Positions 4,010 to 17,220 of a DNA stretch of 17,220 bases are shown in pieces. The stretch lies in the IMG/VR virus record IMGVR_UViG_2609460354_000003; one strand, 5' to 3'. Under the pieces are notes generated by a model. The model was not told the origin of the DNA, did not search any database, and saw only the letters and a list, made by a program, of their open reading frames with translations. The position numbers and the translations under genes were made by a program. Source of the DNA: a virus (lineage: Duplodnaviria > Heunggongvirae > Uroviricota > Caudoviricetes). The stretch's first letter is position 1; each line of letters opens with the position of its first letter.

Positions 4010-4366
4010 TTATTCAGTTCTGGATTTTGTCGCCCTGCGTATCCGCGCTTTCGCGTTACGCTCAATCTGAATTAGCTTTTCTATATTTTTTCGCCTTTCC
4101 CGCTCCTCCTGGCGCAAGTGCCTTACATCATCTGCCAGTCTGGTTTCTCTTTTCGCCACAGAGAGCATCCAGTCAAATGGTTCCACAACTGCACCGCAGA
4201 TTTTACAGCGGACCTGACGCTCTTTTTCGTCAACCCGGACAGAGGCGTGATGACAATATGGTCTTTCCGATGGCTCATAAAGAAAATTAACCTGATTACG
4301 AGGGTCATCCTCTTTTACCGGAAATAAAACGATATTGCTTAACTCATCCTCTGGTTTTATTTCCAT
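4010..4366 (-). CDS. Hypothetical protein with putative zinc ribbon and basic C-terminal helix (118 aa)
   Basis: Start moved to ATG 4366 (GGAGAGGAG SD) within ORF 4010..4423. Motif CHHASVRVDEKERQVRCKICG, then an Arg/Glu-rich tail. Confidence 0.45.
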   Translation of the reverse strand: MEIKPEDELSNIVLFPVKEDDPRNQVNFLYEPSERPYCHHASVRVDEKERQVRCKICGAVVEPFDWMLSVAKRETRLADDVRHLRQEERERRKNIEKLIQIERNAKARIRRATKSRTE

Positions 4367-4487
4367 GCTCCTCTCCTTTGATGCGAATGCCAGCGGTAAT
4401 TGAAGCCTGATAGCTAATTTCACTCACAGTACCGCCTCCTGAAAATTTAATGAACAATTCAATACGTTCTTTGGTAATAGTGGTCAT
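4344..4487 (-). CDS. Small ORF (47 aa), likely recombination-derived chimera
   Basis: TAAGGAGTAACAC-ATG context. N-terminus MTTITKER resembles MITITKGR of gene 4763..5170. C-terminus ITAGIRIKGE matches the C-terminus of Ead-like gene 5684..6433. Confidence 0.3.
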   Translation of the reverse strand: MTTITKERIELFIKFSGGGTVSEISYQASITAGIRIKGEEHGNKTRG

Positions 4488-10899: not shown

Positions 10900-11751
10900 T
10901 TACTGAATTTTCCTGAAAATCACAAGAGGAGTCATTCCGTATGCGGTGCTACTGCGGCCTGCTAATTCTTTTATCCCAGAAAGCATTTCTGTTATGCCAT
11001 CTTTCAAAGGGTTTGACGGGAACACAGACATATCGAAAAGTTCTTGGTCATATTCAGGAAGGGCATCGATAAAACCAAGTACGTACCATTCGCCTGGAAT
11101 ACTCCCACCATATTTTAGAACCATATCGTCTGGATTAATGGTGAGGTAATCACGATTAATAGTCATCCAAATGGTTTGACCAAAATCATTAATAAAATCA
11201 ACCTGCAATGTGTTCGGGACAATATTAAGTACTTCTTTCATCATGCCAAAAGTGACACCGGGCGAGACGGGGATTTCGTCAATACTATCATTCGTTTTTT
11301 TTGCTTTTGGCGGTAGCTTGGAGCGTTCTGCCTTTAGCATTTTTGCTACAAACGGGACGCTTTTTTGAAACATGGAAATATCAAAAATACGAACATGGCC
11401 TTTAGATAAAACAGTACTCCCAAGTCTTTCACCATTAAGTTCTGTTTTTATTAGATCATTTTCAGAAAGTTTATCTAAGAGGTTAATAGGAAGCGTCCAT
11501 GAAGCATCATAGCTTTTTTCATGGGTGTAATTGATAGTTTCCTCAACACCAAGTTTTGACTTAATGATTTTAATGTCAAAGCCGGCATCACTTACTGATT
11601 TGTCAACTTCAGCTGTTACCTGTCTGATAGATGTTATTACACCAGGCCCATGCATCTGTGCCAAGAGCGATGATGCCCGCTTGTTATCAACATATAGAAA
11701 ATCATACAATGAATCGGTGGTTTGTGATTCTTGCGCCGCGGATACGGTCAT
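10900..11751 (-). CDS. Unknown 283-aa protein in the cI-downstream (rex-like) position
   Basis: Complete ORF with AAGGAAGAG SD 7 nt before ATG 11751. AT-rich relative to neighbours. Same strand as cI, followed by a terminator. No motif recognised. Confidence 0.7.
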   Translation of the reverse strand: MTVSAAQESQTTDSLYDFLYVDNKRASSLLAQMHGPGVITSIRQVTAEVDKSVSDAGFDIKIIKSKLGVEETINYTHEKSYDASWTLPINLLDKLSENDLIKTELNGERLGSTVLSKGHVRIFDISMFQKSVPFVAKMLKAERSKLPPKAKKTNDSIDEIPVSPGVTFGMMKEVLNIVPNTLQVDFINDFGQTIWMTINRDYLTINPDDMVLKYGGSIPGEWYVLGFIDALPEYDQELFDMSVFPSNPLKDGITEMLSGIKELAGRSSTAYGMTPLVIFRKIQ

Positions 11752-14674: not shown

Positions 14675-15372
14675 AAAACATCGCCGCACAGATGATTAAC
14701 TTTGACCGTGAGCAGATGCGCCGGATCGCCAACAACATGCCGGAACAGTACGAAGAAAAGCCGCAGGTACAGCAGATAGCGCAGATCATCAACGGTGTGT
14801 TCAGCCAGTTACTGGCAACTTTCCCGGCGAGCCTGGCTAACCGTGACCAGAACGAACTGAACGAAATCCGCCGCCAGTGGGTTCTGGCTTTTCGGGAAAA
14901 CGGGATCACCACAATGGAACAGGTTAACGCAGGAATGCGCGTAGCCCGTCGACAGAATCGACCATTTCTGCCATCACCTGGGCAGTTTGTTGCATGGTGC
15001 CGGGAAGAAGCATCCGTTATCGCCGGACTGCCAAACGTCAGCGAGCTGGTTGATATGGTTTACGAGTATTGCCGGAAGCGTGGCCTGTATCCGGATGCAG
15101 AGTCTTATCCGTGGAAATCAAACGCGCACTACTGGCTGGTTACCAACCTGTACCAGAACATGCGGGCCAATGCGCTGACTGACGCGGAATTACGGCGTAA
15201 GGCTGCCGATGAGCTGTCCTGTATGACCGCACGAATTAACCGTGGTGAGGCTATACCTGAACCAGTAAAACAACTTCCTGTCATGGGCGGTAGACCTCTA
15301 AATCGTGCACAGGCTCTGGCGAAGATCGCAGAAATCAAAGCGAAGTTCGGACTGAAAGGAGCAAGTGTATGA
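14671..15372 (+). CDS. P: Replication protein P (DnaB helicase loader)
   Basis: 233 aa MKNIAAQMINFDREQMRRIANNMPEQYEEKPQVQQIAQIINGVFSQLLATFPASLANRDQNE..., near-identical to lambda P as recalled. ATGA overlap with O stop. Confidence 0.95.
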   Translation: MKNIAAQMINFDREQMRRIANNMPEQYEEKPQVQQIAQIINGVFSQLLATFPASLANRDQNELNEIRRQWVLAFRENGITTMEQVNAGMRVARRQNRPFLPSPGQFVAWCREEASVIAGLPNVSELVDMVYEYCRKRGLYPDAESYPWKSNAHYWLVTNLYQNMRANALTDAELRRKAADELSCMTARINRGEAIPEPVKQLPVMGGRPLNRAQALAKIAEIKAKFGLKGASV

Positions 15373-15662
15373 CGGGAAAAGAAGCAATTATTCATTACCT
15401 GGGGACGCATAAGAGCTTCTGTGCGCAGGACGTAGCTGCGGTAACAGGCGCAACAGTAACCAGCATAAATCAGGCTGCGGCTAAAATGGCGCGGACAGGA
15501 ATCTTAGTCATTGATGGTAAGGTCTGGCGAACGGTGTATTACCGGTTCGCTACCAGGGAAGAACGGGAAGGAAAGGTGAGTACGAATCTGATTTTCAAGG
15601 AGTGTCGCCAGAGTGCCGCGATGAAACGGGTGTTGGCGGTATATGGGAGGACTACAGCATAA
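15369..15662 (+). CDS. ren: Ren protein
   Basis: 97 aa MTGKEAIIHYLGTHKSFCAQDVAAVTGATVTSINQAAAKMAR... matches lambda Ren as recalled. ATGA overlap with P stop. Confidence 0.9.
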   Translation: MTGKEAIIHYLGTHKSFCAQDVAAVTGATVTSINQAAAKMARTGILVIDGKVWRTVYYRFATREEREGKVSTNLIFKECRQSAAMKRVLAVYGRTTA

Positions 15663-15742
15663 GCATAACTTATGGATTATATGGAAAACTGGTAATTATG
15701 CTCTTTTCTTATGAAAAATTAAGAGAAGTTTTCGCTGGCGTT

Positions 15743-16141
15743 TTATTTGTTCTGTTTTTTCTTGCGGGTTATTCTGATTTGTTTTGATTTGATTTTTTCT
15801 GACAAAAGTAGGGAAAAAATATGTCGCAAGTACTTTCTGTCTTTACCTCCTAAATTACATTCTCTATCAAATGTTGCCATAGTTATGACCCCAGTTTTAT
15901 ATAGTGTTTCAGCAATTTTTCTGTAGTTTTTTTCTCGCAAAATTGAAGAGTTTTTCTTTGCTGTATTTTCAAGGCTATCTCCTTGTGGTTTAAGACCATT
16001 TGGGCCAAAAAACGTTGTGGATACTGCTGCACTTGTTGTCCGTTTTTTTTGGCCCATTTGGATAGTACTTGGGAGAGGCATGATTTTAATACGCATATAA
16101 ATAACTCCTCTATCAATTGGATTTTGGGAAAATGTTAACAT
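15743..16141 (-). CDS. Unknown 132-aa protein translationally coupled to the Mnt-like repressor
   Basis: ATG 16141..16139 overlaps the repressor stop (TAATG). Lys-rich C-terminus. A competing 77-aa frame (15883..16116) exists, so frame choice is uncertain. Confidence 0.35.
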   Translation of the reverse strand: MLTFSQNPIDRGVIYMRIKIMPLPSTIQMGQKKRTTSAAVSTTFFGPNGLKPQGDSLENTAKKNSSILREKNYRKIAETLYKTGVITMATFDRECNLGGKDRKYLRHIFSLLLSEKIKSKQIRITRKKKQNK

Positions 16142-16458
16142 TAATCATGATTAAGGAGTAATTTTAAATCTTCCAATAAAATTTGTTTAAACTCTTGTGT
16201 TCTATGATCGATATACAACGCAAGTTTGCTTGCATTATCTTCCAGGTCACGTATCTCTCTGTCACCTCGAATAAACCCAACTAAATTTAAACGTTTAGAT
16301 AGTTCAGAACTTCCTTCTATGGCATCTTGGAGTATTTGAATGATTTCTGAATTCATTGAGCGCCCGTTTCGTTTGGCTCGTTCAGCTATAGCTTCACGCA
16401 TCCCATCAGGGAAACGGAGGTTAAACTTATCGTAGTCTTTTACTTGTTTGTCAGCCAT
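16141..16458 (-). CDS. mnt: Mnt-like ribbon-helix-helix repressor (Arc/MetJ superfamily)
   Basis: From ATG 16458: MADKQVKDYDKFNLRFPDGMREAIAERAKRNGRSMNSEIIQILQDAI... The core FNLRFP...NGRSMNSEIIQILQDAI closely parallels P22 Mnt as recalled, with a C-terminal extension as in Mnt. Confidence 0.72.
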   Translation of the reverse strand: MADKQVKDYDKFNLRFPDGMREAIAERAKRNGRSMNSEIIQILQDAIEGSSELSKRLNLVGFIRGDREIRDLEDNASKLALYIDHRTQEFKQILLEDLKLLLNHD

Positions 16459-16557
16459 TGGAACCCCCAAAAAAATGAATGGTGCCATATTGCCACATCA
16501 ATTCAATGGTGGCATTATGGCCTCATGGTGTCATTGTGGCCTCATGAGGTTATGTCA
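16459..16557. promoter_or_regulatory. Divergent promoter/operator region between Mnt-like and Arc-like genes
   Basis: Inverted repeat TGCCACAT...ATGGTGGCA (about 16491-16515), direct repeats ATTATGGCCTCATGG / ATTGTGGCCTCATGA, and the 10-bp palindrome CCTCATGAGG. Confidence 0.5.
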
Positions 16558-16716
16558 ATGGAAAAGAAAGAGGTAAAAATTACCCTTCGCTATCCGCAAA
16601 AAGTGAAGGATGAATTCAAGCGAATTGCTCAGGAGGAAGGGATGTCTGAGAACGCAGCTATTGTTCAGGCGCTTGTATGGGCATTGAAATTTAGAGCACG
16701 GATACATGCTCGCTAG
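16558..16716 (+). CDS. arc: Arc-like ribbon-helix-helix repressor (52 aa)
   Basis: ATG 16558 with GAGG SD 8 nt upstream. MEKKEVKITLRYPQKVKDEFKRIAQEEGMSENAAIVQALVWAL fits the RHH beta-strand/two-helix pattern. Immediately precedes the antirepressor gene. Confidence 0.65.
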   Translation: MEKKEVKITLRYPQKVKDEFKRIAQEEGMSENAAIVQALVWALKFRARIHAR

Positions 16717-16786
16717 AAACAGCGAAGCCCCACTGGCGGCAACCTTAGGGGCTTCTATCGAAAATAACCGCGAAGGAAATATCGAC

Positions 16787-17220
16787 ATGAGTATTGTAGC
16801 AACATCAGATCTGAACTTCCAAGGTGAAGCACTAGTGCCAGTGGCAAATATTGCCGGAATATGGCTAACTTCATCCAACCTAGCAAGAGCACTGAAGTAT
16901 TCGAATAGTCGCGCAGTCACGATGATTTACAACAAATATGCTGACGAATTTTCCAGTAGTATGACTAGAGTGCTTGAAGTCAGTACCTCAGAGAATGATG
17001 TCGAGGTACTTGATCTGAGTACCTCGAAAAGTACTCGAAACTTGAAGAAGAAAGTACGCGTTTTCTCTCTCCGCGGAGCCCATTTGATCGCCATGTTCGC
17101 CCGCACTCCTGTAGCCAAAGAGTTCCGCCGTTGGGTTCTGGATATTCTCGATCGAGAAGTTCAACAATCCCCAATCATAAAACAATTCACTGATAACGAA
17201 CTTTGCACACTTGCTTGGTT
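16787..17220 (+). CDS. ant: Antirepressor (Bro-N/AntA-family N-terminal domain), 5' part; continues past window end
   Basis: Hand translation from ATG 16787 (AAGGA SD 9 nt upstream): MSIVATSDLNFQGEALVPVANIAGIWLTSSNLARALKYSNSR...RVFSLRGAHLIAMFARTPVAKEFRRWVLDILDREVQQ. No stop before 17220. Absent from the ORF track because it is open-ended. Confidence 0.7.
   Translation, partial: MSIVATSDLNFQGEALVPVANIAGIWLTSSNLARALKYSNSRAVTMIYNKYADEFSSSMTRVLEVSTSENDVEVLDLSTSKSTRNLKKKVRVFSLRGAHLIAMFARTPVAKEFRRWVLDILDREVQQSPIIKQFTDNELCTLAW

Follow-up and report, generated by a model that had tools for sequence, protein, structure and literature searches.

The locus under study raises the question of what ties a small gene, here called ORF-X, to the Mnt-like RHH repressor gene behind which it lies: translational coupling, a partnership resembling that of a toxin and its antitoxin, or adjacency brought about by insertion. 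The window, meaning the whole stretch of 17,220 nucleotides that was analysed, is by its sequence a lambdoid E. coli phage or prophage near-identical to Escherichia phage PhiR5_1; bases 15600-16560 are 99.4% identical to the latter. The left flank carries cI, cro, cII/YdaT-like, O, P and ren, and the right flank in sister genomes carries ninB, ninE, rusA and Q. The ren gene (15369..15662, plus strand; known from the annotation of PhiR5_1 and other phages) is the last of the replication block and converges with the 3' end of ORF-X. The GC content is 33-36% over the RHH gene and the stretch downstream of it, whereas the replication genes on the left have ~52-55%. A literature search under the phage name found nothing relevant. 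A sequence-only reading of this DNA had pointed out that the stop codon of the RHH gene (TAA, 16143-16141) overlaps an ATG (16141-16139) in the pentanucleotide TAATG at 16139-16143, and that this ATG opens a frame of 132 aa (15743-16141) in an AT-rich stretch. Both features are there in the sequence. What they signify is another matter, and it is addressed in the following.

The upstream gene was identified with confidence. It occupies 16141..16458 on the minus strand (105 aa and stop) within an open frame of 16141-16488, and its start is most likely the ATG at 16458 (MADKQ...) rather than 16488; PGAP lists it as 'Arc family DNA-binding protein' of 105 aa. The protein matches PF03869 (Arc) with an E value of 6e-20 and 71.2 bits, above the curated threshold of 20.4; among PDB entries it matches 1MNT best (E 1.7e-8), in an alignment that includes the conserved NGRSMNSE motif; and its residues 2-58 share 44% identity with P22 Mnt. 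The earlier description of the protein as Mnt-like is thus borne out. The RHH fold covers about residues 7-51 and is followed by a C-terminal domain predicted to be helical (about residues 47-105). A gapped tblastn alignment pairs residues 2-101 with P22 Mnt in its entirety, at 35%. The C-terminal domain used as sole query of the protein collection retrieved no relatives, and the AlphaFold (AF2) model of the RHH protein from its single sequence, which predicts a helix at 68-102, has a pLDDT below 50 and is too poor for use. Weak matches to RHH proteins of the FitA/HicB/BrnA type were also seen.

The surroundings of the RHH gene reproduce the P22-type immI order, with the RHH gene on the minus strand divergent from an arc-like gene on the plus strand that is followed by a Bro-N/P22AR ant-like gene, also on the plus strand. 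The divergent control region (16459..16557, 99 bp) combines operator-like repeats with a rightward promoter-like site, TTGCCA-17-CATTAT, at 16490-16518. Three operator-like repeats of ~19 bp (ATGGTG-N-CAT...) are found at 16479-16496, 16506-16524 and 16525-16543, and an 18-bp inverted pair also falls within 16479-16543, so placed that the candidate operators overlap the rightward promoter-like site. The arc-like RHH gene (16558..16716, plus strand) encodes 52 aa and matches PF03869 (E 9.5e-5) and the Arc-like repressor family phrog_582. Between arc and ant, a candidate sar-like antisense RNA (16721..16785, minus strand) gives a full-length match to Rfam RF00262 (sar) with 34 bits, below the gathering score of 43, and an E value of 1.5e-4. 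The 5' part of the antirepressor-like gene (Bro-N; PF02498, E 1.7e-9) spans 16787..17220 on the plus strand and continues past the end of the window; PGAP places its start at ~16706, overlapping arc, and the gene is named 'P22AR C-terminal domain-containing protein' in sister genomes. Judged from homology and gene order, the RHH protein is the Mnt of an immI-like module sited between ren and ninB.

ORF-X itself is, by its pattern of substitution, a real protein-coding gene. In four codon-aligned pairwise lineage comparisons with homologues 50-61% identical to it, dN/dS was 0.09-0.17 (pS ~0.7, pN ~0.2), and a ratio of ~0.1 indicates strong purifying selection on this frame. The alternative frame of 77 aa (15883-16116) is 29-32% conserved, the same as the third frame (29-35% over the other two frames), and has stops in the homologues; the choice between the 132-aa and the 77-aa frame, left to be made by the sequence-only reading, therefore falls on the former. 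ORF-X contains an A8 homopolymer at 16043..16050 (minus strand; codons 16-18): a slip of one base leads into the 77-aa frame, and one metagenomic protein of 85 aa (P0012) is such a frameshifted product. In the GenBank record of PhiR5_1, two short CDS in different frames are annotated here, and these are spurious.

The start of the gene is a separate issue, and it bears directly on the overlap. Every homologue of 50-61% identity is 117-118 aa long and begins with MRIK or MRVK, equivalent to M16 of the 132-aa frame (ATG 16096), and PGAP likewise annotates a hypothetical protein of 117 aa (WP_021550620/WP_032180456). A Shine-Dalgarno sequence GAGGAG (16105..16110, minus strand) precedes this ATG by 8 nt, and AGGAGTGA is conserved at the homologous position in all solitary homologues; a search for a Shine-Dalgarno sequence before the overlapping ATG 16141 found none. 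The 15-codon in-frame extension (16097..16141, minus strand) that makes up the 132-aa frame has no counterpart in the diverged homologues. In sister genomes it shows two polymorphisms, one missense and one silent, with the frame still open; the chance of 15 stop-free codons in AT-rich sequence is, as a rough estimate, ~0.3. Collectively, conservation and ribosome-binding signal suggest that the native form of ORF-X is most likely the 117-aa protein (15743..16096 with its stop, minus strand) started at ATG 16096 from its own GAGGAG, and that the extension is probably an untranslated leader. With ATG 16096 as the start that is conserved for ORF-X, the genes are separated by a gap that is most likely 44 nt, and the TAATG overlap is most likely incidental.

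The family to which ORF-X belongs is exceedingly small. Only 12 relatives were found among 5.8 billion proteins searched, comprising near-identical E. coli copies and the 117-118-aa proteins from Hafnia paralvei, Enterobacter and metagenomes. No significant match to Pfam, PHROGs, NCBIfam or PADLOC was obtained with the 132-aa form, the 117-aa form or any of the 8 family members, in agreement with the initial description of the downstream gene as one of unknown function. The remote homology search that had been proposed as a way forward was run as a profile search of 1.84 billion representative proteins and returned only the ORF-X family itself, plus one low-complexity match (P0013). A profile search of the PDB yielded only matches of E ~0.1-0.8 (a DtxR-like repressor, ribosomal S17), which are a lead, not evidence; fold comparison of ORF-X gave no significant match; and a scan of genome contigs turned up nothing beyond a 20-residue match in a Pirellula MAG, which is spurious. 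ORF-X is therefore assigned to a very small orphan family in enterobacterial prophages.

Outside the lineage of the window, the gene is found alone. Four prophage arrangements of Hafnia have the homologue by itself in the interval from the replication genes to NinB, on the strand opposite to both. Its place in Enterobacter and a number of metagenomic contigs is next to xis, where it is again antisense to the genes around it, and one further context is also solitary. Altogether, about 20 diverged loci from Hafnia, Enterobacter and metagenomes lack an RHH gene upstream, and neither the entire RHH protein nor its halves retrieved anything by tblastn from the solitary loci, IMG/VR L032-L035 included. 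Whatever the context, the solitary copies have a conserved TATTAT ~25 nt before the ATG and a TGAAA-like element 16-17 nt further up, read by consensus scan as GTGAAA-17-TATTAT at one of these loci (L010); the conserved -10 element and Shine-Dalgarno sequence thus accompany the gene in three kinds of context. A moron, in the sense of Juhala and Hendrix, is an autonomous promoter-gene unit inserted between phage genes. Because ORF-X travels with its own promoter-like element, the family is understood as a moron, and the sequence features agree: a putative promoter of its own, varied positions, and a deviant composition (GC 34% in ORF-X vs ~52-55% in the replication genes to the left).

The RHH gene and ORF-X are paired in one lineage only, whose members are 97-100% identical; besides the window and PhiR5_1, it takes in eight IMG/VR contigs and five E. 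coli genomes from RefSeq. Variation inside the lineage amounts to one synonymous change in the RHH gene and four different amino-acid changes, none synonymous, in ORF-X, and these substitutions are too few to interpret. From this distribution, the pairing is taken to have arisen once. A mosaic joint at 16322, coincident with the end of the RHH fold, marks the boundary of shared DNA. To its right, the RHH fold, operators, arc and ant are 85-91% identical to the DNA of hundreds of E. coli prophages. To its left, the C-terminal domain of the RHH protein and ORF-X form a single block of 33% GC that is unique to the paired lineage and has no counterpart elsewhere in the protein collection searched. 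E. coli SCU-113 has the same conserved part joined to a different C-terminal domain and to a 160-aa gene related to DUF2513.

The protein encoded by ORF-X is strongly basic (pI 10.6; 27 K+R vs 8 D+E) and has no hydrophobic segment. Its AlphaFold model (AF2; 8-sequence alignment; pLDDT 68) shows 40 disordered N-terminal residues that hold the conserved motif FGPxS...P.GD, followed by predicted helices at 42-68, 73-80 and 87-116 in which most of the invariant residues are located. The C-terminal half is accordingly modelled as helix-loop-helix-shaped. A small nucleic-acid- or host-factor-binding protein, made in the lysogen and serving exclusion or regulation, is a tentative suggestion for its role that we consider possible and distinctly short of probable.

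Considering the evidence together, we favour, with confidence moderately above even, an account of ORF-X as a moron that sits in a cargo slot behind the repressor gene of the antirepressor, is probably co-transcribed with that gene, and encodes an orphan basic helical protein. In other genera, ORF-X would be a free-standing moron placed antisense to phage operons and equipped with its own sigma-70-like -10 element (TATTAT) and Shine-Dalgarno sequence; in one E. coli lineage, it would have been placed 44 nt behind the mnt-like gene, the AT-rich block that brought it having also supplied the C-terminal domain of the repressor. The TAATG overlap would then be a by-product of the junction. No minus-strand terminator-like site was detected between the RHH gene and ORF-X, and the window has not kept the ancestral TATTAT, nor is a promoter belonging to ORF-X evident at that place; because of these two findings, the leftward immI promoter is the probable source of a transcript shared by the mnt-like gene and ORF-X. 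ORF-X would, therefore, be expressed whenever that promoter fires. As a point against this, a consensus scan did not locate the leftward (Pmnt-like) promoter. The terminator search downstream of ORF-X returned only weak AT-rich hairpins. The proposed account implies expression in the lysogen, comparable to rexAB behind cI in lambda and to orf59a (sieA) behind mnt in P22, with a product that may bind nucleic acid or a host factor as a lysogen accessory function in exclusion or regulation, and that would not be a toxin held in check by the RHH protein. A further point against the account is that in lysogens of Kapi1, a P22-like E. coli phage, mnt expression was not detectable (PMC12922286).

Among the alternatives, a minor share of the probability is given to independent transcription of ORF-X from a promoter of its own in the 3' end of the RHH gene, which would leave the adjacency of the two genes without regulatory meaning. 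The solitary homologues lend this reading substance through their own promoter-like element; moreover, the 3' end of the RHH gene contains a promoter-like site, TAAACA-17-TAAAAT (16189-16161), making independent transcription possible, and a weak ATGATT-16-CAAAAT is found at the position homologous to the ancestral promoter. Against these sites must be set their expected frequency, the AT-rich region containing 4 promoter-like sites compared with 3.6 expected from shuffled sequence. The one element that is conserved in the family, TATTAT, is lost in the window, and there is nothing to stop read-through from the RHH gene.

True translational coupling, as the sequence-only reading had proposed it from the TAATG, would require either reinitiation at ATG 16141, giving the 132-aa form, or translation of the RHH gene to melt a hairpin that masks the Shine-Dalgarno sequence; by either route, the output of ORF-X would track RHH translation. 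We regard it as improbable. The TAATG does exist, and the extension behind it is in frame and open, remaining so in sister genomes despite two substitutions. The start codon that has conservation and a strong Shine-Dalgarno sequence lies 45 nt further on, however, so that the overlap is not at this start; ATG 16141 is devoid of such a sequence, and the extension is missing from all diverged homologues. The claim of coupling via TAATG is, on these grounds, not upheld. As to the hairpin, the local fold pairs ACUCCUU in the last RHH codons with the Shine-Dalgarno sequence AGAGGAGU at -12.7 kcal/mol (z -1.9), but it is marginal, with 11 of 200 shuffled sequences folding equally well, and it disappears from the MFE structure once 161 nt are folded (z 0.09). 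The junction is carried by a single near-clonal lineage. A minor 132-aa isoform arising by reinitiation at 16141 is the most that coupling would contribute.

A pair of the toxin-antitoxin type is unlikely, and to our judgement clearly so. This reading assigns repression of the operon to the N-terminal domain of the RHH protein, and to the lineage-specific C-terminal domain the neutralising or gating of ORF-X as a toxic or abortive-infection effector. It draws on the gene layout (RHH first, then a small co-oriented gene), on the AT-rich block in which the RHH C-terminal domain and ORF-X are united uniquely in this lineage, on SCU-113, where C-terminal domain and cargo are replaced together, and on the weak FitA/HicB/BrnA-type matches of the RHH protein. 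A type II pair would be expected to include a recognised toxin family or fold, and comparison of ORF-X with Pfam, NCBIfam, PADLOC and PHROGs, together with the fold comparison, provided neither, nor any defence family. Such a pair would further be expected to be inherited together, yet all homologues of 50-61% identity are without an RHH neighbour. Homologues of ORF-X at the ~20 solitary loci are under strong purifying selection, possess a promoter-like element and have no partner gene on the same strand; an unguarded toxin is disfavoured because they are solitary, promoter-bearing and well conserved. The RHH protein, for its part, is 44% identical to Mnt and sited in an mnt/arc/ant module that has a candidate sar as well, and the pairing arose once. 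The toxin-antitoxin or repressor-effector layout noticed in the sequence-only reading consequently reflects the arrangement in one near-clonal lineage, ORF-X being solitary in every diverged locus examined.

The joint swap of C-terminal domain and cargo in SCU-113 is also the look expected from a functionally matched pair. We attach very low probability to the idea that the block 15743-16322 is such a pair, in which the RHH C-terminal domain binds or senses the ORF-X protein. If it were true, antirepressor control, and with it prophage induction, would be linked to a basic effector protein; the locus would represent a hybrid, part immI immunity switch and part toxin-antitoxin or abortive-infection cassette; and the A8 tract of ORF-X would add on/off switching based on slippage. 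Finally, that only non-coding DNA (3' UTR or terminator) lies behind the RHH gene, an objection already raised by the sequence-only reading, or that the 77-aa frame is translated, can be dismissed as having almost no probability, for the low GC, the two-CDS annotation of PhiR5_1 and the 85-aa frameshift variant from one metagenome are contradicted by a dN/dS of ~0.1 in the 117-aa frame across genera, by stops and merely background identity of the homologues in the 77-aa frame, and by the failure to detect a convincing terminator.

Taken as a whole, the earlier interpretation, which combined coupling, a toxin-antitoxin-like pair and a departure from P22, is largely not supported. The immediate outcome of the analysis is a correction of annotation, a real gene of 117 aa taking the place of the two PhiR5_1 CDS. 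It founds a tiny orphan family of basic proteins from prophages, outside which no relatives are known among 1.8 billion representative proteins. No new regulatory principle is revealed by the ORF-X locus. It is rather one more case in which the gene of the antirepressor's repressor, Mnt-like or cI-like, is trailed by a changeable accessory gene, as it often is, and the slot behind that repressor gene may be a useful hunting ground for exclusion or host-modifying functions expressed in the lysogen.

Comparison with known systems places the locus closest to other immunity modules. The departure from P22 that had been suggested, on the premise of a monocistronic mnt there, is not borne out by the P22 RefSeq record: its annotation puts the mnt terminator behind orf59a (59 aa, 99 nt downstream of mnt), and sieA comes next on the same strand with its own promoter. 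Experiments have made use of a plasmid with sieA, orf59a and mnt (bioRxiv 10.1101/2023.08.15.553423). Phage L has a mnt-like gene with a short orf62, in a region described as very variable among P22-like phages (PMC8022706). P22 immI and the present module have in common an Mnt-family RHH gene divergent from arc and ant across a region rich in operators (here putative ones), a sar RNA before ant (here a candidate at the place of P22 sar, with a match below the Rfam threshold), and a small unrelated ORF behind mnt on the same strand, in P22 ahead of the annotated mnt terminator. They differ in location, P22 having its module between genes 16 and 9 and the present phage having it in a lambda-like early region, flanked by ren and ninB, and in the RHH C-terminal domain, which differs from that of Mnt and exceeds it in length by 23 aa. 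Kinship of ORF-X with P22 orf59a was considered and rejected (hhalign probability 0.1%), and ORF-X is unrelated to SieA.

In lambda, the accessory genes rexA and rexB are co-transcribed with the maintenance repressor gene cI. The likeness proposed here is one of analogy only, an accessory gene on the transcript of a repressor made in the lysogen; there is no relation of sequence or fold, the expression of ORF-X in the lysogen is inferred, and the repressor of the present module controls an antirepressor, not the lytic promoters. RHH toxin-antitoxin operons (ParD/ParE, CcdA/CcdB, FitA/FitB) likewise have the RHH gene first with a small co-oriented gene closely behind, and combine an N-terminal DNA-binding domain with a variable C-terminal domain. 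ORF-X, in contrast, cannot be placed in any toxin family, its diverged homologues all stand alone, and it starts, after a gap of 44 nt, from a Shine-Dalgarno sequence of its own; the RHH protein is part of an ant-control module. With morons, the solitary copies of ORF-X share a promoter-like element and Shine-Dalgarno sequence, antisense orientation to the flanking genes, varied positions and deviant GC. The copy in the window differs in that it no longer has a recognisable promoter, directly adjoins a repressor gene and yielded no clear terminator.

The ant modules of SCU-113 and Enterobacter offer the nearest parallel for the arrangement as such. In these, a repressor gene, either Mnt-like RHH or cI-like S24, is divergent from arc or Bro-N ant, and an accessory gene comes next on the repressor's own strand; their cargo, of 160 aa, is widespread and DUF2513-related, compared with the tiny family of ORF-X. 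The DUF2513-like family of SCU-113 is found behind the cI-like S24 repressor in tail-region modules of Enterobacter and stands alone in Klebsiella. Stx-type phages and one Klebsiella phage have the mnt-like gene without cargo. The cases of P22, phage L, SCU-113 and Enterobacter, taken jointly, show a recurrent accessory-gene slot behind the repressor of antirepressor modules, of which ORF-X would be one more occupant.

The mosaic joint at position 16322 of the window, compared with E. coli SCU-113 (L008, 2813-3637), lies within the mnt-like repressor gene at the end of its RHH fold. The two lineages have in common the half of the gene that encodes the DNA-binding part, together with the operators, arc and ant; the C-terminal domains differ, and the downstream genes differ along with them. 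The DUF2513-related cargo of SCU-113 (150-160 aa) is found also in Enterobacter prophages (L040-L043), there behind a cI-like HTH+S24 repressor; a small gene together with a Bro-N/P22AR antirepressor runs divergently from this repressor, and the whole arrangement is placed within a tail-gene cluster. In Klebsiella prophages (L036-L039), the same family is solitary. The slot behind the gene for the ant repressor seems to be a general site for cargo.

In the window, this slot holds ORF-X, the gene of a 117-aa basic protein (15743-16096, minus strand). The GenBank record of PhiR5_1 (L001, PV340545) breaks ORF-X into two hypothetical coding sequences of 45 and 49 aa in different frames (4143-4432); against this annotation, we show by comparison of coding sequence that ORF-X in PhiR5_1 is to be read as a single 117-aa gene. 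When window 15743-16096 was compared with the sister genomes of the near-clonal lineage (L001-L003, L024-L031), all four variable sites in ORF-X were amino-acid-changing (G15S, G34S, Q106E, N116K) and the RHH gene showed a single, silent change, the counts being too small for a test. The G34 of the window is derived, because serine is present in all the others and in the family consensus. ORF-X also contains, on the minus strand, an A8 homopolymer (16043-16050; codons 16-18), and a metagenomic protein of 85 aa (P0012) is the exact product of a one-base slip at this tract into the alternative 77-aa frame. Enterobacter homologues have A8 or A9 at the equivalent site, Hafnia does not; the slip could reflect sequencing error or slippage-based switching.

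In E. coli PSS-11 (L003, 5288-6018), an IS1 has taken the place of ren and of some of the replication genes. It reaches the 3' flank of ORF-X (window equivalent ~15726), but ORF-X and the immI-like module are both undamaged. Strain 2017.02.03CC has the module in a DLP12-like remnant adjoining intD, with ren present only as a fragment.

Regarding control of the module, the stretch 16479-16543 holds three direct repeats (ATGGTG-N-CAT...GGCCTC, each ~19 bp) along with an inverted pair of 18 bp. These elements overlap a rightward promoter-like site (TTGCCA-17-CATTAT) and are candidate operators for the Mnt-like and Arc-like proteins. In P22, ant is controlled by the antisense RNA sar. The Rfam sar model (RF00262) matches window 16721-16785 on the minus strand over its full length, scoring 34 bits (E 1.5e-4), below the gathering threshold of 43. 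The match sits exactly in the interval from the arc-like stop to the ATG at 16787. It suggests that this immI-like module of E. coli retains sar-type control and that 16787 is the start of ant, not the upstream ATG (~16706) chosen by PGAP.

Left of cI, the rex-like slot encodes a 283-aa DUF6414 protein (10900-11751, minus strand), instead of which PhiR5_1 and PSS-11 have a HipA-family kinase and a DUF3037 protein. In all likelihood this position is occupied by one or another moron for defence or exclusion. The cro position is taken by a YdaS-like protein (PF15943; 12855-13088, plus strand) and the cII position by a YdaT-like protein (PF06254; 13113-13658, plus strand). Both families carry toxin labels in Pfam and both occupy regulatory positions here, an arrangement that resembles Rac-type and cryptic prophages.
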